Source: a virus (Duplodnaviria > Heunggongvirae > Uroviricota > Caudoviricetes). From it: a stretch of DNA of 48,351 bases. Positions 24,967-41,330 of the stretch are shown here, one piece after another. Position numbers and translations under genes: made by a program. Each line of letters begins with the position of its first letter. Positions within the stretch are counted from its first letter, which is position 1. The stretch lies in the IMG/VR virus record IMGVR_UViG_2654588181_000001; one strand, written 5' to 3'. The notes below the pieces were generated by a model, which saw nothing but the letters and a program-made list of their open reading frames with translations, did not search any database and was not told the DNA's origin.

Positions 24967-25083
24967 CGGGTTATCTCCGGTTTAACCAGGGCGGGTATCG
25001 CTCGGTTTCGGGTATAACCATAGGAAATTTTTTCCCACCTGTAAAGCACCTTTTATATAAATATATAATTATATAATTCTATG
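24967..25083 (-). promoter_or_regulatory. repeated promoter-leader cassette, copy 1
   Basis: Near-identical to 31746..31865 and 41210..41330; -35 TTTACA, 17-nt spacer containing GGAAAAAATTTCC, -10 TATGGT, ~60-nt conserved leader, GGAG then ATG. Confidence 0.6.
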
Positions 25084-25973: not shown

Positions 25974-26049
25974 TGGTGGCCCCTACCGGATTTGAACCGA
26001 TGACCGTGCGATTATGAGTCGCCTGCTCTAACCACTGAGCTAAGGGGCC
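25974..26049 (-). tRNA. tRNA with CAU anticodon (Ile2/lysidine type or Met), CCA encoded
   Basis: 76-nt cloverleaf: GGCCCCT acceptor stem, D-arm TAGCTCAGTGGTTAGAGCA, anticodon loop CTCATAA, T-loop GGTTCAAATCC, 3' CCA; first ~42 nt match my recollection of E. coli ileX. Confidence 0.8.
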
Positions 26050-26218
26050 ATATTTGATTTGTTTGTCTGGTGTGGCGCCGCGCACGAAAATCCCAGCCAA
26101 TAAATTCAGGATTTTTGGGCGCGGCGGCATATCAGACAAACATGGTTGATGCGTGCGCCCATGAGAAAAGCGCATAGAATGTTGTAACTATATATTTATA
26201 TAATTATAGAAATATATA

Positions 26219-26428
26219 TTACTTTCGGCAGTTGATTTCCCATGCCCTGTTATGAGCCAGAATATCTTTCTTTGTCTGGCGGTCCATAACATCGATGTCG
26301 TGATCAGTCAGGTAGATGGGCTTTACCCAATCACAGGCGGTATCAACCACCACCGGGACGCTTCCACGACTCCCGCAGCTCGCGATCAACATCGTCATCA
26401 GCCATATGGTTAACACTCTGCTGTACAT
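26219..26428 (-). CDS. o-spanin (Rz1-like lipoprotein), overlapping in alternate frame
   Basis: 69-aa ORF with lipobox-like LIASC; overlaps 3' end of Rz-like gene. Confidence 0.5.
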   Translation of the reverse strand: MYSRVLTIWLMTMLIASCGSRGSVPVVVDTACDWVKPIYLTDHDIDVMDRQTKKDILAHNRAWEINCRK

Positions 26429-27160: not shown

Positions 27161-27479
27161 GATTAAACCCTAATGCGTCAACTATCCGCGCCAGATTGCC
27201 CCTGAAATACAGAACAACGATGCAGATAATCAGATTTCCAATAACCACCAGCCAGTGGGATTCTTGATAAAGACCGAACACATAACGGAAGGGAACATTG
27301 GCGTATACAATGACGTAGATATAAGCCAGAAAGGAAACAAATGGACGATGCCTGGAGTCTTTCCGTCGATAAAGCATCAGCGCCATTACTATTACTGTGC
27401 AAAGCACCGCATTAATCAGTGCTGACGGGTCACTGCTTACCATTTGAACCCCCTCCACGTAAGCGGGAAAGCATTCCAA
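27147..27479 (-). CDS. lysis-associated membrane protein (holin/antiholin candidate)
   Basis: 110-aa ORF with hydrophobic helices between holin candidate and endolysin. Confidence 0.45.
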   Translation of the reverse strand: MECFPAYVEGVQMVSSDPSALINAVLCTVIVMALMLYRRKDSRHRPFVSFLAYIYVIVYANVPFRYVFGLYQESHWLVVIGNLIICIVVLYFRGNLARIVDALGFNHDQR

Positions 27480-27825
27480 AGATGCTACCGAGATCCTGGC
27501 TGTTTACGAACGTGAGGATTTTAATGGTCAATGCAGCCACAATAACCGCACCAAGCGCATCCAGAGGACGATCGTTGTAGCTGGTCCATTTGGCAAGAAA
27601 TGAGCCAACTAACGGCGCTCCAATCACTCCAACAATGAACGATGTAAAGAAATAGCCAATCAGCTTGAGACGGCTAATATTCACCGCTGTAGCAACATAG
27701 AAAACAGCGCCAGCAAATGCCCCGAATACAACGCCGTAATCAATACCAGTTGCAATACCAAAAACGCTGGCACCCATCAGGCCACCAGCAGCAACGGCCG
27801 TACCGGAAATTGGTTCTGCTGACAT
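27430..27825 (-). CDS. putative holin
   Basis: Hydrophobic multi-TM ORF; start chosen at ATG 27825 preceded by GAGGA, because the upstream ATG at 27873 lies inside a terminator hairpin. Confidence 0.55.
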   Translation of the reverse strand: MSAEPISGTAVAAGGLMGASVFGIATGIDYGVVFGAFAGAVFYVATAVNISRLKLIGYFFTSFIVGVIGAPLVGSFLAKWTSYNDRPLDALGAVIVAALTIKILTFVNSQDLGSIFGMLSRLRGGGSNGKQ

Positions 27826-27838
27826 TGAAATCCTCGTT

Positions 27839-27868
27839 AAAAAAAAAGCCCCGCCGAAAAGGCAGGGC
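27839..27868 (-). terminator. rho-independent terminator upstream of lysis genes (tR'-like)
   Basis: Minus-strand GCCCTGCC-TTTTC-GGCGGGGC followed by T9. Confidence 0.55.
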
Positions 27869-28561
27869 TTCATAAAGCAACAAATTACGCGGTAATCGCT
27901 TAACGCAGTTTTACTACGTTAAATGAAACACTACACCCAGTTACCACCTAAAACAAGGTTTTCCCATAAAAAAACCTTCATATTGTGGTTAACCGATCAA
28001 TAAAAAAACAATACTTAACTTTTGACCAACCGAACATCCCGACCAGGACTTCCATAATATTCGCCGATATGCCACTGCTTAAGTTGAGTAATCTTCTCCA
28101 ACTTAACGCCCATAGAGTCCAGTTTCTGCCATGTTTTCGGTTGTATGTGCTTCATTACCCGCTCTGAATATCTGAATACTGCTCGTAAGCGCATGGCTTC
28201 TCACTACAGCTTATATAAGTGGTTTTTCCAGCGGTTTTGCGCCGCGCTGCGCTTATCTTTGACTCCCTCTCTGGCAATTCCAGAATATAAGTACAACACC
28301 ACACGGCGGTTGCTAACTCTCAACCACTGGCTGGGATAGCAACGTCTGTATACACGGGAAATAAGCATCTTTGCTTTACGGTTTTTCATCATTTTGCTCT
28401 CCTGCGTTTCTTTGCTGCACGCCGTGCAGCTGCAATACCGGTATGGCGGCGCTTTGGTGCCGGGATGATGTTGTCAGCCATCAGGACATGCGGCTTTGCA
28501 ATTAGCGCAGAAGCCCAAAAACGAGTCGGGTATGGTAACAAGCCGATACATGCCACACGCA

Positions 28562-29101
28562 TTACTCACCTCCTTTGATGCGAATGCCAGCGGCGCGTGG
28601 CACATTAACTTCCACGATGCGCACAGTTGGTTTGTACATCTCGATCGCTGTCAGCCAGTCAGCTCCTGTCATGCGCTTTTCCGCATCGCCATTAGTCCAC
28701 TGAACCGGTACACCAATAGCCTTCATCGCTATTTCTATTTCCCCGGCAATGGCGCTTTTTCCGCAACCAGTAAAACCAGAAACAACGACAAGAACTTCGC
28801 CCCTGGCCGGTTTTATTTCCCGAGCATCCTGTTCCTTAACGCGTTCCTCCAGTTCGTAGACTCTGCATTGCTCTTTATCATCAATCAGATATAACCCAAG
28901 ACATTCGCTTTCTACCCAGCCACCGAAATCATGATCGTAACGCTCACATGAAAACTCACCGTCACCGTCCTTTGTTGGAATTGTGTAACTGTCTAATGGG
29001 CCACCGTACGTCGGTACATTTCCCAATGTCGGATGCTCAATCCACATGAAAAATGCACGTCCGGTTATTGGGCAAATATCTGGTCGCCATTGGTTACTCA
29101 C
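28562..29101 (-). CDS. hypothetical P-loop protein
   Basis: 179-aa ORF; Walker A-like GFTGCGKS in C-terminal half. Confidence 0.5.
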   Translation of the reverse strand: MSNQWRPDICPITGRAFFMWIEHPTLGNVPTYGGPLDSYTIPTKDGDGEFSCERYDHDFGGWVESECLGLYLIDDKEQCRVYELEERVKEQDAREIKPARGEVLVVVSGFTGCGKSAIAGEIEIAMKAIGVPVQWTNGDAEKRMTGADWLTAIEMYKPTVRIVEVNVPRAAGIRIKGGE

Positions 29102-29727
29102 AGGTTGCCCTCCTGAATACGCTTAAACTCAATTACCCATACCCACGGGTTAGATAGCCAGTTCTCTTGCCCGTAAATACCGCGCCAGATATCACCAAAG
29201 CCAACACGATAAACAGCTTCCGGCGGTGTAATTTTGTACGTCGCCGGAGATGCGCCTTCAGCTTTAGCATCTGCCTCGCTCATGTCATGCAGCCGTTCCA
29301 CACGCACGTCGGTTATTTCCAACAGAATGCGGCTGGCCCAACGTGGCATGTGAATCGACGGGGTCCAGCCCTCAGCTGGCTTGCTACTATCTGAGTAATC
29401 AGCCTTGTAATCACACAGTTCAGAAGCCAGAGAGACACCATCTTTGATTTCCTGAATGACATCGTTATCCAGCCAAAAAGCGTTGAATGTTTCACGGACC
29501 CATATGCGATCTCCAACGTTACCGAACGGGCATAAACCATGTTCCGGTGCATCCATAACGTGGGTATAGACACCATTGCGTTTCTTTGTCGGTTTACGGA
29601 TAACCAGGCAGTTATCGGCCCTGACATTTTTTACAGGTCGGCGAGTCTGCGTCTTCCTTCCTTCGAGGATGGCCCGGACCATCTCATCGTTAAAAATCAT
29701 GCCGCGCTCTTTCACTCTCCCTCCCAC
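29098..29727 (-). CDS. hypothetical protein, ASCH/PUA-like N-terminus
   Basis: 209-aa ORF; N-terminal MVRAILEGRKTQTRRPV...GDRIWVRETF pattern recalled from ASCH-domain proteins. Confidence 0.45.
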   Translation of the reverse strand: MGGRVKERGMIFNDEMVRAILEGRKTQTRRPVKNVRADNCLVIRKPTKKRNGVYTHVMDAPEHGLCPFGNVGDRIWVRETFNAFWLDNDVIQEIKDGVSLASELCDYKADYSDSSKPAEGWTPSIHMPRWASRILLEITDVRVERLHDMSEADAKAEGASPATYKITPPEAVYRVGFGDIWRGIYGQENWLSNPWVWVIEFKRIQEGNL

Positions 29728-29956
29728 GTTTTCAGACTTTCACCACAAAACGGGCAAAATGAGACTCGAATAGGTGATTTAGAAAACTCACCGGAACGCA
29801 ACATCACCAAATCAGGTCCACGGGTTAAACTCTCATTCCAGATTTTGTATAGCAGTAAGCCTTTTCTTACTGAGCATTCAGCATCGTGCTCAAGAGACTT
29901 TGCCAATGCAGCACACGGCTCTATTCGATTGCCATTAATTCGACAATTTGATCCAC

Positions 29957-30322
29957 TCACTTCAACTCCTCCCGACGACGTTCCTGAAGCTCTAGCATTG
30001 CGGCTCGGAAATCCTGCCACCATTCCTCATCGGCTACTGGGGTGTTCCGCTCCAGCACCTTGTCCGCATCGGCGATCAGGTTTGCCAGACTCTTGTCTGA
30101 AATCTTCGTTACCGGAGTCGTTGGTTGCTCAACCTGCCCGATAGGTTTTATCGTGCTCAAAAGGAGGCGACGGCGGGAAAGTGGTGCCCCACAACGACGG
30201 CCATCTTCCTTGCGATATGTTTCTTTCGGACCAACACACCAGGTTGTCGGCGTTTCGCGTAACTTCACTTTTTTCTCACCATCAATGGTGATGATTATTC
30301 CGGTATGGGTTTTGATGCTCAT
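29957..30322 (-). CDS. hypothetical protein
   Basis: 121-aa ORF, overlaps upstream gene stop. Confidence 0.45.
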   Translation of the reverse strand: MSIKTHTGIIITIDGEKKVKLRETPTTWCVGPKETYRKEDGRRCGAPLSRRRLLLSTIKPIGQVEQPTTPVTKISDKSLANLIADADKVLERNTPVADEEWWQDFRAAMLELQERRREELK

Positions 30323-30621
30323 GCCACAGCCCCTCTCAACGGCTTAACTTTGGCTAATAAGGTGTTAAACAACATGGAGTTAGGATTCATGCCAAATGGC
30401 AATTCCGGTTTAGCGGAGTAGTACAGGCAACCATTTATTTTCCTGGTTGTTATCTGTCCTTCGGCAACCATGCTTCTCAGTCTGCAACGCATAGAGTTCT
30501 GCGACACACCAATGTGCTCCGCGATTACGTCCACTTTTGAACATGGGTGATCGGTCAGGAAATTAATCACATCTTGGGGGTTAATAATTTTGCGTTTCAT
30601 TGTCGAGGCGTCCTTATACAT
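30319..30621 (-). CDS. small HTH DNA-binding protein (first gene of 4-gene operon); start may be second ATG at 30600
   Basis: 100-aa ORF; AT-palindrome motif and terminator hairpin immediately upstream. Confidence 0.5.
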   Translation of the reverse strand: MYKDASTMKRKIINPQDVINFLTDHPCSKVDVIAEHIGVSQNSMRCRLRSMVAEGQITTRKINGCLYYSAKPELPFGMNPNSMLFNTLLAKVKPLRGAVA

Positions 30622-30677
30622 TTATATAAATATATAATTCTATATACGGCGGGAGACATCCCGCCGTAGGCTTACTG

Positions 30678-31745
30678 TCAGGCTTTCAATAGCGATTCTT
30701 TCAGATATCGGGCATCAGCCAGGGCGTTTGGAGTAATCTTGCGAACCCATGCATTACGGGTTGGACTCCACTTAAAGGCGCGTGATTTAAGCAGCGAACG
30801 AATGTTTGCCTCTGGTTTGCCAGGGAAATAAAACAGGATGCGGTTATCCTCTGGATCTATCTCCATAGAAAAGCCGTCGTATTCTTCGCGCTGTGCTCCT
30901 GTTACAGACTTGACCGATTCAAGCTCCTTAATACGGCTCTGTAGTCGTTTGATTTCGGCGTTATTGTTGCTCAGTGCGTATGAAGGGAATCCGATGCGCC
31001 CACAGAAATCTCCGGCCAGTAACTCTTTGGCTTCGCTTTCTGTAAACCTGAGATCGATTAATGCAGAAAGCTGCTGTATTTGGTCTTTTTTGTATTTGCG
31101 AATGGCCTTATTTGCGGCCTTCATTTTGACGTGTGACTTCATGCAGCCTTGCAGCTTACGAAGCAACTTAAATAGCGCATCAGGATCATCAGACGAAATT
31201 CCATTACGACCAACACCTGCGGCTTTGCTCTCGTAGTGTGATGCTTTACTTTCGCATTCAACAAACGCTTTTCTGAATAACGCATCAGCTTTAGACAAAC
31301 GGCGGCGATGGCCTTTCGCGCTATAATGGTCAACTAAAATCGGCTGGCCTAACGGGATCACATCCAACAGGTCATGCGCTCGCTTATGCGCTACCGCACC
31401 TTCTTTTCTGGCTTTTTCTGCACGAGCAATATATCGGGCAAGACGCGCGTTCTGGCGTTCCTGATAGGTGTTTACGTAATCATCTCCGCGCTGCTGCTGT
31501 TCAAGCCATGCTTTGCGCAGATCTTCTGTTACGTCCACCAGCTCCGCAGGGATACAACCAGTTTGGGCTTCATAAGAGTAACCATCCTCATAGATACGCC
31601 CATCGTCTTCAACAAAGAAAAAGGTTTCGTGCTCATCGCTTTTGACCATACGACCATTAACATGGCGTAATAGGTAGCCAGTATCAGTGCTTAACAGGCT
31701 GTTAGGGTTGTTGATCCAGTCAGAAATAATTACTTGTTTATTCAT
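30678..31745 (-). CDS. conserved hypothetical protein (possibly DUF3560-like)
   Basis: 355-aa ORF directly driven by promoter-leader cassette copy 2. Confidence 0.55.
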   Translation of the reverse strand: MNKQVIISDWINNPNSLLSTDTGYLLRHVNGRMVKSDEHETFFFVEDDGRIYEDGYSYEAQTGCIPAELVDVTEDLRKAWLEQQQRGDDYVNTYQERQNARLARYIARAEKARKEGAVAHKRAHDLLDVIPLGQPILVDHYSAKGHRRRLSKADALFRKAFVECESKASHYESKAAGVGRNGISSDDPDALFKLLRKLQGCMKSHVKMKAANKAIRKYKKDQIQQLSALIDLRFTESEAKELLAGDFCGRIGFPSYALSNNNAEIKRLQSRIKELESVKSVTGAQREEYDGFSMEIDPEDNRILFYFPGKPEANIRSLLKSRAFKWSPTRNAWVRKITPNALADARYLKESLLKA

Positions 31746-31865
31746 CAGATTTCTCCGGTTTAACCAGGGCGGGTATCGCTCGGTTTCGGGTATAACCTTA
31801 GGAAATTTTTTCCCACCTGTAAAGCACTTTTTATATAAATCTATAATTATATATTTATAGATTTT
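31746..31865 (-). promoter_or_regulatory. repeated promoter-leader cassette, copy 2
   Basis: Same ~115-bp element as copies 1 and 3; -10 variant TAAGGT; leader ...CCGGAGAAATCTG ATG. Confidence 0.6.
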
Positions 31866-34439: not shown

Positions 34440-35096
34440 ATGAAAAGCAACGACGAGAACATCAAGAAAGAAATAGGTCTGCGCATTCAGACTCTACGGA
34501 AACAATCCGGCATGACTGCCGGAGATCTCCAGCAAGTCACTGGAATAGGCTTAAGCACCTTGCAGAACTATGAGGCCGGATTAAGACAACCATCTATACC
34601 TGCCATCAAGAAAATCGCGCACGCCCTAAAAGCATCAGCGCCTTACATCGCGTGCTTAACAGATAACCCGTTCCCACCCCAGAATACTAACGCTCCTGTT
34701 ATTCCTGGGCTTGTAGCTATAAAAAATGACATAGCATCGCACGCCGGAGAAAAGCCTGTGCTGGCGATAGAACAGGAGATTTTACGAAGCAAGAACATCA
34801 ACCCATCGTCTCTGTCAGTTCTCCAGAGCAACGATGAGTTAATGTCACCAACAATATCCCCTGGCTCCCAAGTCCTGATTAATACAGACGATACAGAGAT
34901 TCATGAGGGGATCTATGCCCTTGAAGACAGAAATGGCCTAGTTGTTTTGAGGCACTGTAGAGTCATACCGGGTGACAATGCTGTTATGCTGTCAACCGAA
35001 AGGGATGCTGAAATGAACACTAAGCATCTGAATAACGAGGAATTTAAGCGTTATAAAGTTCTTGGCCGCGTAGTTAGTGTTGTCAACTGGTTATGA
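34440..35096 (+). CDS. CI-like repressor (HTH plus S24/LexA-like autocleavage domain)
   Basis: 218-aa ORF; N-terminal HTH; C-terminal ELMSPTISPGSQVLIN resembles S24 Ser-nucleophile region. Confidence 0.8.
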   Translation: MKSNDENIKKEIGLRIQTLRKQSGMTAGDLQQVTGIGLSTLQNYEAGLRQPSIPAIKKIAHALKASAPYIACLTDNPFPPQNTNAPVIPGLVAIKNDIASHAGEKPVLAIEQEILRSKNINPSSLSVLQSNDELMSPTISPGSQVLINTDDTEIHEGIYALEDRNGLVVLRHCRVIPGDNAVMLSTERDAEMNTKHLNNEEFKRYKVLGRVVSVVNWL

Positions 35097-35563: not shown

Positions 35564-35713
35564 CTGCAAGCGGGCTAACGCCCGCTTATATGATTATAGA
35601 TTTATATAATTATATAAAACGCTTTTCATCCGCCAAAAAGTTGGTTATGCTTACCTCGTTCTATAAATATAGATTTATAGAATTATATAATCAAACACAT
35701 GGAGTCTCGACAA

Positions 35714-36367: not shown

Positions 36368-36410
36368 TATATAATTATAGTTTTATAGATTTATATAAGA
36401 GGGGATACAC

Positions 36411-36880: not shown

Positions 36881-36903
36881 TAAAAAAGGCCCCCGAAGGG
36901 GCC
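36881..36903 (-). terminator. rho-independent terminator
   Basis: GGCCCC-CGAA-GGGGCC hairpin followed by T-run on minus strand. Confidence 0.5.
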
Positions 36904-36909
36904 TAATCG

Positions 36910-37029
36910 CTACTTGCTGCTAATGTTTATCGTCACATTCAGAGCGTTATCAGTAATCTTCCAACCCTCCCCATGTGGCGTAAACAAAGCTCCAGTAACA
37001 ACGATAAAAATACACATACAGTATTTTTT
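36910..37029 (-). CDS. small hydrophobic peptide (40 aa) with own SD and terminator
   Basis: MKKYCMCIFIVVTGALFTPHGEGW...; AAGGG 8 nt upstream of ATG; terminator immediately downstream. Confidence 0.35.
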   Translation of the reverse strand, partial: KKYCMCIFIVVTGALFTPHGEGWKITDNALNVTINISSK

Positions 37030-37785
37030 CATTGTGTGGCCCTTACAGGCCGTTTCACGGCATCCCCACCGACGAAAACAACGCGAGAGCAAGCACGGCT
37101 GCTTGTGCTTGCATGTACGGCAACAGGAAATCCTCCCCTAAAGTCGGTGCCCGGGTGCGAATCGGCGGGAAGGTCCACAGGTATTTTACGATTATTTTAA
37201 GATTAGTAATAGGAAAGAAATTAAACGAAAAAAACAGTTTATTTTCACAAAATCAGTAACCTACCCACAATCTGTGAGTTTGCTGACACAACAAGAACCA
37301 CAATTTTTTGATGTATAATAGTGGACTATTATTACCTTTTGAGTAAAATCAATTTGCTGCTTGTGCTTGCGTGGTTGTTTATACAACAACGTAATGCTGA
37401 AAGGACCGCGAATCCGATCAGCACGAAAGAACCGTCCTCAATAGGGCGGTTTTTTTGTTTCTGCCTACCAATAAACCCACGCTATGTGGTTGTCTCTGTT
37501 AAAATCCCGCCGTATTGACATGAATGCGCCATTGGTGGACACTTTCCGAGCCGTAGCAAAATCTACGGTCGGGATTAGCCTCCTGAATAACACGATGGCG
37601 CATACCGCGTTAGCGGTTTTTTTATGCGTAGAGCACTGTTACGCCCAAATTATGGTGGGTCGTACAGGGGCGGAGAAATCCGCGCCGGTTCGTCATTGTG
37701 TCCGGTAAGGCTAACCCTGTACGGCTCACCACCATTTGATTAGCCTCGAATGGCGGTGATAGTTCCATATACTGGAGATATCACA

Positions 37786-37977
37786 ATGACAAACCTACCC
37801 CATGACTATTACGTCAACCTCGTAAAGATCCTTCTCAAGAAAGCCTCATACGCCGATAAATTCCGCCTGGCTGAAATCATCGAGCGCGAAGCTATGCGCA
37901 TCGCCAGCAACGATAACGCTGTTTCTGACGCAAAAATCTCCCTCGTAACCAAAGTAGTTATGGGAGGTGCAAAATGA
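37786..37977 (+). CDS. small ORF overlapping antirepressor start (icd-like position)
   Basis: Stop overlaps ant ATG (ATGA at 37974..37977); start uncertain. Confidence 0.35.
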   Translation: MTNLPHDYYVNLVKILLKKASYADKFRLAEIIEREAMRIASNDNAVSDAKISLVTKVVMGGAK

Positions 37978-39116
37978 AAACGCTTCCGACCGTTAACACC
38001 CTACAGCCTATCCTGCATAACCAGATCCCCGTTATCACTAGTGAACTTCTGGCGCAGTTATACGGAACAAAAATCAAAAACATTTCTGATAACTTTCTGA
38101 ACAACACGACGCGATTCGTAGCCGGAAAGCATTACTTTAAAATTGAAAAAAACGAATTACGCGAGTTCAAGAACAGACCCGAAACAATCGGGTTAGTTGG
38201 TAAAAATGCCCGCTCCCTAATTCTCTGGACCGAACGCGGGGCTGCACGTCACGCTAAAATGCTCGAAACCGATCAGGCGTGGGATGTATTCGAACGGCTG
38301 GAAGACTGCTATTTCAGCCAGAACGCGCAAACGGCCGCGACCGTAACCGTCTCGCCAAACAATGCTCGTGAGGTTGTCGATACGCTCAACGCCAAACCGA
38401 TGTTTTACATTAAGGTGTGCAATAACGAGCCACTCACAACCTCAGCCGATGTTGCCCAGGCATTCAGCACCACAAACAATTCCATCGTTATGGCCATCGA
38501 TGCGCTACGCATTCCTCGCACGGCTGCGGCGCGTCACTTCTTTAAAGAGCAACGACCGTTGGAAGGAAGCGACCGCGAAATAACAATCTATCGCATGACA
38601 AAAGACGGATTTACCTTGCTCATGGAGAGCATCGACGGTCCAGGCGTGAAAGATATCAAGCTGGCCTACATTGAAGCCTTTAACGCTATCAGCAGCGTGT
38701 TAAAAACACAGTACGAGCGTGATCTGGCTAAACGACTGTACCAGGAAAAAACGATTATCCGCGCGGCAACAGAGCATAATCGGCTATTAACGGAACCGAA
38801 CTACAGGAAGGAACTAATCAAGGAGTTTGACAAGGCAACAGGGAAAACCAAAGCGGCGCTAAATCTGCCAGCAATGACTCAGGAAAATGTGATATCAGCC
38901 TTACTTCTTGATCTGCTCAGAAACGCCAGAGCACTTATCAGCTTTGACGAAAACCTGAATCCTCAGCTCAAGCTACTACCACCGACAGGCAAAGTAGTCG
39001 ACCAGGCTGATCACAACAGCATACTCAGCGTACTGGATGCAAACCTGCCAGCCAGGACACTACAGGATCTGATAAAAACATGTGCTGATAAGCTGGCACA
39101 GAAAAGCAGACCATAA
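37974..39116 (+). CDS. antirepressor (Ant-like)
   Basis: 380-aa ORF; N-terminal KilA-N/ORF6N-like segment; operator-like CCCACGCTATGTGGT upstream at 37477..37491. Confidence 0.7.
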   Translation: MKTLPTVNTLQPILHNQIPVITSELLAQLYGTKIKNISDNFLNNTTRFVAGKHYFKIEKNELREFKNRPETIGLVGKNARSLILWTERGAARHAKMLETDQAWDVFERLEDCYFSQNAQTAATVTVSPNNAREVVDTLNAKPMFYIKVCNNEPLTTSADVAQAFSTTNNSIVMAIDALRIPRTAAARHFFKEQRPLEGSDREITIYRMTKDGFTLLMESIDGPGVKDIKLAYIEAFNAISSVLKTQYERDLAKRLYQEKTIIRAATEHNRLLTEPNYRKELIKEFDKATGKTKAALNLPAMTQENVISALLLDLLRNARALISFDENLNPQLKLLPPTGKVVDQADHNSILSVLDANLPARTLQDLIKTCADKLAQKSRP

Positions 39117-41209: not shown

Positions 41210-41330
41210 CGGGTTATCTCCGGTTTAACCAGGGCGGGTATCGCTCGGTTTCGGGTATAACCATAGGAAATTTTTTCCCATCCGCAAAGCACTTTTTATA
41301 TAAATCTATAATTATATAATTCTATGAGCA
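41210..41330 (-). promoter_or_regulatory. repeated promoter-leader cassette, copy 3
   Basis: Same element as copies 1 and 2; -35 variant TTTGCG; preceded by terminator 41326..41358. Confidence 0.6.

Follow-up and report, generated by a model that had tools for sequence, protein, structure and literature searches.

An eight-gene early unit, probably a mosaic accessory region, in a 48-kb phage-plasmid of Escherichia coli and its relatives

An eight-gene unit on the minus strand

We analyzed a block of early genes in the IMG/VR virus record IMGVR_UViG_2654588181_000001, a stretch of 48,351 nucleotides (the window) that is essentially the whole of an approximately 48-kb temperate myovirus living as a plasmid, i.e., a phage-plasmid of E. 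coli and its relatives. An earlier note on the window had described the block as a four-gene operon. We found the four open reading frames (ORFs) on the minus strand where the note had placed them, but the unit has eight genes and runs on to position 28015. We consider it rather probable, from sequence comparisons, that the locus is a mosaic, dispensable early accessory region like the pmgT region of phage P1 and the exo-xis region found in lambdoid phages. Within this circular, myovirus-type element, it would make up the variable, accessory portion of the early lytic transcription unit, and its products would be dispensable modulators of host physiology or phage development and not replication, recombination, or virion proteins. 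A role of the block in host takeover or developmental modulation appears plausible.

The best database matches of the window were circular 48- to 49-kb plasmids of E. coli, E. fergusonii, and E. albertii and the Yersinia phages vB_YpM_39, vB_YpM_41, and vB_YpM_44. A fully annotated relative encodes RepA, ParA, an XRE-type repressor, toxin-antitoxin genes, and several DNA methyltransferases, together with a full set of head, tail, and lysis genes of the myovirus type. The early minus-strand unit has the order Ref nuclease, DUF1064, a gene of 125 amino acids (aa), DUF3560, the studied block, holins, and GH108 lysozyme, and the lysis cassette and other genes stand between the block and the structural genes. 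The earlier note had taken this for the position at which lambdoid phages carry nin or accessory genes. The block, made up of accessory-type early genes, does lie between the DUF3560 gene and the lysis cassette, and homologs are found in lambdoid exo-xis and Rac post-replication regions.

The eight genes extend from 30600 to 28015. They encode, in the order of transcription, a 93-aa winged helix-turn-helix (wHTH) protein (gene 1, 30319..30600), a 121-aa protein of two modules (gene 2, 29957..30322), an 82-aa four-cysteine protein that starts with GTG (gene 3, 29712..29960), a 205-aa PmgT-like ASCH-domain protein (gene 4, 29098..29715), a 179-aa "headless" Ead/Ea22-like protein (gene 5, 28562..29101), and proteins of 57, 62, and 59 aa (gene 6, 28389..28562; gene 7, 28204..28392; gene 8, 28015..28194). 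Seven of the eight junctions are 4-nucleotide (nt) or 1-nt start/stop overlaps (ATGA, GTGA, TAATG), each with a good Shine-Dalgarno sequence; genes 1 and 2 and genes 6 and 7 overlap by ATGA, and genes 5 and 6 by TAATG. No sigma-70-like -35/-10 site was found on the minus strand between 27400 and 32400, and the terminator-like sites inside the unit have short stems only, their total count being near the shuffle expectation. Because of the overlaps with their Shine-Dalgarno sequences, the lack of a promoter-like site on this strand, and the short stems of the internal terminator-like sites, we read 30600..28015 as one translationally coupled polycistron. No Rfam RNA family was found inside the operon. 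The single message would begin beyond a stem-loop and an AT-rich box specific to the family and end before a conserved leader and terminator that may gate the lysis and late genes.

Among the block products, no match to a routine replication, recombination, nin, or defense family was found with Pfam, PHROGs, and PADLOC. Homology to replication, recombination, or nin proteins, which the earlier note had named as what would speak against a candidate anti-defense or host-takeover module, was thus absent from the Pfam and PHROGs results. PHROGs labels all the operon members as "unknown function" except the HTH protein.

Mosaicism and relatedness to P1, P7, and lambdoid loci

Among relatives, the block behaves as a hotspot of recombination. 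Of 1,417 matching E. coli records, only 2 span 80% or more of it. The HTH, 121-aa, and ASCH genes are constant in seven close relatives (six E. coli plasmids and the Yersinia phage YpM_39), and a Citrobacter relative retains from these three only the HTH gene, the ASCH gene, and, of the 121-aa protein, the N-terminal module. The variable cargo of the relatives comprises Ea22-like genes in full-length, duplicated, or fragmentary form, DUF7446, fragments of DUF551, a gene of 114 aa, and differing small genes. We propose that the wHTH, 121-aa, PmgT-like ASCH, and 59-aa proteins form the conserved part of the locus and that the 82-aa, Ead/Ea22-like, 57-aa, and 62-aa proteins are interspersed cassettes. 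With gene boundaries as the points of exchange, these cassettes would be swapped with exo-xis-type or post-replication regions of lambdoid phages and with the early operons of P1 and P7.

The closest likeness to known phage-plasmids was found in P1 and P7, where PmgT (46% identity) and Upf86.8 (49%), respectively, are ASCH homologs of the gene 4 protein with the same GRKTQTRR motif. In P7, Upf87.4 is 77% identical to the 82-aa protein, and Upf88.3 shares the Ea22-like central module at 96%. The P7 upf86.8-upf87.4-upf87.6-upf88.3 operon lies behind a C1 operator and P1 pmgT behind OpmgT, and both are early phage-plasmid operons that are non-essential and located in a hypervariable region. P1 pmgT was dispensable both in a CRISPR interference assay (efficiency of plating, 0.98) and upon deletion (PMC10695390). 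P1-like phage-plasmids have eight hypervariable regions, the pmgT-humD interval among them, and JL22 has a cluster including an Ea22-like gene in place of pmgT (PMC9603915). However, the loci differ in several respects. The ASCH gene precedes the 82-aa gene in P7, opposite to the order here; pmgU and pmgV of P1 are not in this block; C1 operators are present in P1 and P7 but not here, where the element has its own AT-rich boxes; and the backbone, 48 kb in size with tail genes of the P2/Mu type and a lambda-like head, is unrelated.

In lambdoid phages, the exo-xis region (ea22, ea8.5, orf60a-63) likewise consists of small early genes of largely unknown function that are mosaic between phages. 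The Klebsiella phage RothD carries a PmgT-like ASCH gene between its exo and xis genes, beside a DksA/TraR-like gene, and in Rac-SA53 a homolog of the 82-aa gene follows ead, after the replication genes, i.e., in the post-replication region. In contrast to the lambdoid loci, there is no exo, bet, xis, or int here, and the element is a plasmid prophage.

The PmgT-like ASCH protein

The earlier note had assigned an ASCH/PUA-like domain to the gene 4 product (29727/29715..29098). By sequence this domain stays below the Pfam cutoff, although some PGAP records call close homologs "ASCH domain-containing protein"; the structure model confirmed the ASCH (PUA-like beta-barrel) fold. The protein, alone and as a profile, gave nothing significant against PDB sequences. 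Relatives of the PmgT type number at least 8,000 in databases, and they occur in 348 phage records that span phages of enterobacteria, Pseudomonas, and Vibrio, Myxococcus phage Mx8, and phages of Microcystis and Salinibacter.

The N-terminus of the protein (ILEGRKTQTRR) resembles that of E. coli YqfB (ILAGRKTITIR), an N4-acetylcytidine (ac4C) amidohydrolase, in the GxKxxTxR octapeptide, with G19, K21, T24, and R26 sharing their numbering, and E153 and Y181 align with Glu74 and Tyr89 of YqfB, respectively. This match was obtained from a MAFFT alignment and inspection; hhalign with the ASCH profile aligned only the C-terminal half to YqfB, with low probability. The G19-R-K21-T-Q-T24-R-R26 motif and E153 do not vary among the homologs from P1, P7, and Citrobacter. 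In YqfB, Lys21, Thr24, Arg26, Glu74, and Tyr89 are required for catalysis; mutagenesis showed Lys21, Thr24, and Arg26 to be essential, and the Glu74Ala exchange lowered the activity 100- to 1,000-fold (PMC6972931). A 2026 preprint divided ASCH proteins into GKTR (YqfB-type) and GKER classes and reported that 19 of 19 tested proteins removed ac4C from tRNA (bioRxiv 10.64898/2026.02.27.708502). RNases, base sensors, and a 5-hydroxymethylcytosine glycosylase are found among the other ASCH proteins. The PmgT-like protein is predicted to be a YqfB-type ASCH hydrolase of, or a binder for, N4-acylated or otherwise modified cytosine in a nucleoside, RNA, or DNA. Since the PmgT family keeps the YqfB-type catalytic residues and ASCH proteins deacetylate ac4C in tRNA, the enzyme hypothesis is directly testable.

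Two database records of this family deserve mention. The RefSeq label "DNA primase" for P7 Upf86.8 (NC_050152.1; locus L006, 3427-4008) is attached to a PmgT-like ASCH protein, probably in error. In the P1 mod749::IS5 c1.100 record (AF234172.1; locus L096, 2489-3418), the 309-aa PmgT diverges from all its homologs just before the last beta-strand, reading WVTRLATIR... instead of WVWVIEFKR, and overlaps pmgU, which looks like a frameshifted 3' end.

The four-cysteine protein and its insertion slot

The earlier note had treated 29728..29956 as a gap that might hold a 29-aa zinc-ribbon micro-ORF. The CPFCGE motif of this peptide is present, but the peptide is the C-terminus of an 82-aa protein, gene 3, which starts at GTG 29960 and ends at 29712. 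The 229-nt "gap" is coding, because the protein matches phrog_4030 over its full length (E value, 4.7e-37), the ratio of nonsynonymous to synonymous substitution rates is 0.08 to 0.15 in frame versus approximately 1 to 2.8 in the two shifted frames, and the GTG start is conserved in homologs. The product belongs, by sequence, to the P7 Upf87.4/Rac "rac21" family; it has 53 database relatives, with homologs in P7 (Upf87.4), SJ46, D6, mEp460, and Rac-SA53. In an alignment of 15 homologs, down to 45% identity, C6 is invariant, C16 and C69 are near-invariant, and C29 is not conserved; C72 is invariant as well, but one frameshifted homolog (P0434) fills this column with a shifted cysteine. The conserved cysteines, arranged as two pairs, suggest a Cys4 metal site, which would probably bind zinc. 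As to a zinc-ribbon fold, a profile of the protein gave marginal matches only, to archaeal RpoM/TFS (E value, 0.006) and cereblon CULT domains (E values, 0.45 to 0.64).

The gene is a precise 237-bp one-gene insertion (29719..29955) between the 121-aa and ASCH genes, and it is missing in the closest relatives (L001 to L003). The upstream junction lies at the GTGAG start/stop overlap, a microhomology shared with the P7 copy. In plasmid pE500002_49, the same slot is occupied by a different 52-aa Cys-rich gene (phrog_2358; locus L092, 2756-2914); small zinc finger-like cassettes therefore recur at this slot. The gene also occurs by itself, with 59 of the 80 viral contigs that carry it having no other gene of the operon and no DUF3560 gene within 4 kb. 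A functional linkage between the 82-aa and ASCH genes was rejected, as the two co-occur in only 2 of the 80 contigs and their order is reversed in P7.

The Ead/Ea22-like protein

The product of gene 5 had been described as a P-loop protein. Its Walker A motif is real, but it proved to be Ead/Ea22-like, and a nucleoside triphosphatase (NTPase) or kinase fold found no support. It consists of a beta-rich central module (residues 1 to 80), a short helix, and a Walker-A-like C-terminal module of approximately 75 aa (GFTGCGKS), and it corresponds to the C-terminal 179 aa of Ead/Ea22-like proteins of 269 to 310 aa (P0123 and P0124), with 93 to 96% identity. Pfam PF13935 has no match in it, while in the full-length relatives this domain covers residues 2 to 130, exactly the part that is absent here. 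The GTG start of gene 5 is an internal Val codon of the full-length proteins, and its strong Shine-Dalgarno sequence lies within the 3' end of the ASCH gene. The headless form recurs, with 240 member sequences in 45 contigs.

A fold search with the protein gave no match, a PDB sequence search likewise returned nothing significant, and neither an entire alpha/beta P-loop fold including Walker B nor a significant NTPase family match was seen. As only the Walker A motif is present and no fold matched, nucleotide or phosphate binding is possible, and membership in a kinase or NTPase family is unsupported. The Walker-A-like module was found in 442 clusters among 1.84 billion representatives, in many architectures. 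In 147 further representatives (P0241 to P0387), proteins of 110 to 623 aa, the G[FLY]TG[SC]GKS motif is near-invariant, and the module is C-terminal in 129, N-terminal in 11, and internal in 7. We also noted that this module (28565-28819, minus strand; GEVLVxVSGxTGxGKSAIAGEIEI...YKPxVRIVE) is a mobile domain that lacks a Pfam model and is joined to many unrelated partners on its N- or C-terminal side, long Ala/Pro-rich proteins among them.

The Ea22 proteins of lambda and Shiga toxin (Stx) phages favor lysogeny, and their variable C-terminal domains may contact an unknown host protein (PMC7093339, PMC10834534). The gene 5 protein has the central and C-terminal modules of this family, but it lacks the PF13935 N-terminal and coiled-coil part, which is thought to mediate tetramerization, and its C-terminal module would differ from that of lambda Ea22, judging by the account of C-terminal domain variability in PMC10834534. 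It would most likely act via protein contacts, as proposed for lambda Ea22.

The HTH, 121-aa, and small basic proteins

Gene 1 is the small HTH gene that the earlier note had recognized (30621/30600..30319). Its product matches phrog_1687 "MarR family" (5e-32) and weakly matches HTH_24, FaeA, and TrmB of Pfam as well as NolR/ArsR. The start codon is likely ATG 30600, giving the 93 aa annotated in all relatives; an alternative ATG at 30621 would give 100 aa. The annotated E. coli plasmid relatives encode the identical protein (WP_000823235.1); identity is 100% for the Yersinia phage YpM_39 and 59% for Citrobacter, and the gene is first in the block in all relatives compared. It may regulate the unit. 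The 121-aa protein of gene 2 (30322..29957), noted before as unknown, has no known domain in Pfam and nothing significant in a PDB sequence search; it matches phrog_7520 (9e-84), with its N-terminal half matching phrog_1226 and its C-terminal half phrog_14672. The N-terminal module stands alone as a 68-aa protein in Citrobacter.

Genes 6 to 8 encode three small basic proteins without known relatives of defined function. The 57-aa protein of gene 6, with an Arg/Lys-rich C-terminus (phrog_13831, 1.4e-41), is present in only some relatives, and the basic 62-aa protein of gene 7 (phrog_1380, 1.2e-30) has relatives that are 54 to 93% identical. Gene 8 (59 aa; phrog_9594, 8.6e-46) is unannotated in the relatives examined. 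Its product is 68% identical to the Citrobacter copy, and the proportions of nonsynonymous (pN) and synonymous (pS) differences between the two copies are 0.21 and 0.76 in frame, whereas pN exceeds pS in the shifted frames.

Signals flanking the unit

A GC-rich stem-loop with a 10-bp stem, ACGGCGGGA-tgtc-TCCCGCCGT, lies at 30650..30671 (minus strand), 7 nt past the DUF3560 stop codon. The earlier note had called it a terminator hairpin; the hairpin is there, but no U-tract follows the stem, the tail being AUAUAGAAUU, and the terminator scan did not report the site. In the YpM_39 and Citrobacter relatives, the stem is preserved and the loop varies (TGTC, CGTC, GCAA). The stem-loop is followed by an AT-rich box, TATAGAATTATATATTTATATAAATGTATAAGG (30612..30644, minus strand), whose 3' end is the Shine-Dalgarno sequence of the HTH gene. 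The box is 100% conserved in the Citrobacter relative, where the flanking proteins are 59 to 69% identical, and the sequence from the stem to the HTH start codon is almost identical in this Citrobacter freundii relative, loop excepted.

The box core, AATTATAKATTTATATAA, is built of 8-bp ATAKAWTT units and recurs in approximately eight intergenic clusters of the window, with 29 matches at up to 3 mismatches versus 0.15 expected. These 8-bp-periodic clusters lie at 25053-25078, 26186-26221, 30612-30639, 31831-31862, 35592-35619, 35659-35692, 36373-36398, and 41296-41327. Six copies examined in detail have the same orientation as the downstream genes. Three boxes stand just upstream of a shared 37-nt promoter-like sequence with TTTACA-17-TATGGT, GTGCTTTACAggtgggaaaaaatttccTATGGTtata (25013-25049, 31791-31827, and 41256-41292, all minus strand). 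This sequence is absent at the box of the HTH gene, where there is no room for it. The Citrobacter relative carries boxes at equivalent positions, and the P1, P7, and lambdoid loci are without them.

The conservation across genera and the repeated intergenic copies indicate that the AT-rich element is functional and marks the start of a transcription unit. To that extent, the promoter that had been seen in this AT-rich palindrome was a reasonable reading, although no sigma-70 consensus fits the box. Probably it serves as an operator, an activator site, or a UP-type element proper to this family.

At the other end, the operon is bounded by a conserved non-coding leader with a terminator (approximately 28014..27836, minus strand). 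The leader is visibly more conserved versus Citrobacter than the adjacent coding DNA (67% identity), and one stem pair shows a compensatory change. The intrinsic terminator (27871..27836) is strong, with an 11-bp stem and T9, and lies directly before the holin start at 27825; the 147-aa ORF at 27873..27430 is over-extended, and 27825 is probably the holin start. A leader and terminator before a holin gene recall the pR'-tR' arrangement of lambda, and the layout suggests that antitermination controls the lysis and late genes.

Weighing the explanations

Several observations weigh against the block being a mosaic accessory region of the kind proposed, or against parts of that proposal. The stem-loop could stop part of the upstream transcription, and as no promoter was found, the unit may depend on read-through or on an unrecognized promoter. 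Gene 5 could be a decaying remnant, though the headless form recurs and has a strong Shine-Dalgarno sequence, and its structure model is poor (predicted local distance difference test score [pLDDT], 63). For gene 4, the ASCH domain (PF04266) scored 17.5 bits versus a gathering cutoff of 21.2, over residues 136 to 161 only. At 205 aa the protein is twice the size of the small single-domain YqfB-type enzyme (approximately 103 aa) and, unlike YqfB, is encoded by a phage and early; the PmgT family has approximately 100 extra residues in two insertions, including a near-invariant PSIHMPRWASR, which YqfB lacks, and His70 of YqfB is Asp in the gene 4 protein. Given the extra residues, the PSIHMPRWASR motif, and this exchange, the substrate or chemistry may differ from that of YqfB, and the substrate may be a polynucleotide. 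We regard it as quite improbable, though worth stating, that PmgT-like proteins are phage erasers of ac4C or a related N4-acyl/alkyl cytosine mark on host tRNA or other nucleic acid. If this were true, early PmgT-type erasers would reprogram translation or blunt modification-dependent host defenses, and the PSIHMPRWASR insertion would supply a polynucleotide grip.

Finally, the P1 annotators labeled PmgT "putative morphogenetic", and this annotation, extended to its neighbors in P1 and P7 and echoed by the "morphogenetic protein" of some database entries, would make the block products morphogenetic helpers. Such a function is highly improbable, as knockdown and deletion of P1 pmgT leave plating unreduced (PMC10695390), the fold of the gene 4 protein is that of a nucleoside or nucleic acid enzyme and not of a virion protein or chaperone, the homologs lie in exo-xis or int-proximal early regions, and the block is separated from the structural genes. 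An anti-defense module, to which the earlier note had pointed and in which host immunity would be inhibited early in infection or induction by at least one of the small proteins (the 82-aa Cys4, Ea22-like, 57-aa, 62-aa, and 59-aa proteins) or by the ASCH protein, is also unlikely. An early position, small proteins, and rapid cassette turnover are typical of counter-defense loci, and the turnover is extreme here; the 82-aa gene moves alone between unrelated phages. Restriction conflicts turn on modified bases, which ASCH/PUA-type domains read (PMC12191111). However, the general scans gave no match to a characterized inhibitor, with no search aimed at anti-defense profiles made, and PADLOC, which tests defense and not anti-defense, gave 0 matches for eight proteins (those of the seven operon genes other than the 59-aa gene, and DUF3560). 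A literature search for a tie between Ea22 and anti-defense found nothing relevant, and the Ea22 relatives that have been tested affect the lysis-lysogeny choice and not immunity; the findings give no specific pointer to anti-defense.

The block might instead be a regulatory cassette, in which the wHTH protein binds the dispersed ATAKAWTT boxes and, with a small partner such as the 59-aa protein, times middle and late transcription, the rest being passengers. No member is better conserved than the HTH gene, which is always in first position, immediately behind the box that is fully conserved across genera; the boxes mark transcription unit starts, three of them next to the promoter-like sequence; and the 59-aa gene adjoins the conserved leader and terminator ahead of the holin gene. 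We nevertheless find this distinctly unlikely as an account of the locus: nothing links the wHTH protein to the boxes, which could instead be sites of action of the XRE repressor, the C4/Ant module, or host factors, the HTH site has no room for the shared promoter, and all but one or two of the eight genes would be left unexplained.

Mosaic blocks of dispensable small early genes are already known in lambdoid phages and P1-like phage-plasmids, so that the mosaic accessory region proposed here adds little conceptually. Its value lies in the corrected annotation (eight genes, a real 82-aa Cys4 gene, a 59-aa gene unannotated in relatives, and an Ea22-like protein without the family domain) and in tying a poorly described 48-kb phage-plasmid family to the P1 pmgT and lambda exo-xis regions. 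The family-specific AT-rich box at transcription unit starts offers a regulatory lead.

Other features of the element

The upstream neighbor of the block is the DUF3560 gene (30678-31745, minus strand; 355 aa), and the C-terminal half of its product matches phrog_19458, which is annotated as "primase". For the 48-kb phage-plasmid family, PLSDB gave no replicon type, and no published description was found in the literature searched. A paper on the "plasmid-like" phage vB_YpM_HQ103 was rejected as such a description since it concerns an unrelated 32-kb P2-like phage.

The window has a single tRNA gene, with anticodon CAU, at 25974-26049 (minus strand). It is called Met by ARAGORN and in the YpM_39 record, and its ortholog in a relative is called Ile by PGAP. 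We take it to resemble E. coli tRNA-Ile2, which carries lysidine and not ac4C, and it would presumably decode AUA after lysidine modification. A link between this phage tRNA(CAU) and ac4C was dropped because of the disagreement between ARAGORN (Met) and PGAP (Ile for the ortholog).

Rfam matches to ryfA, isrK, and C4 antisense RNA were found at 36882-37178 (minus strand), 37550-37623 (plus strand), and 37648-37736 (plus strand), just upstream of a 380-aa antirepressor-type gene with an ORF6N domain (ORF 37974-39116). This C4/isrK/ORF6N locus resembles the immI-type (c4-ant) immunity module of P1 and P7 and is additional to the XRE-type repressor at 34440-35096.

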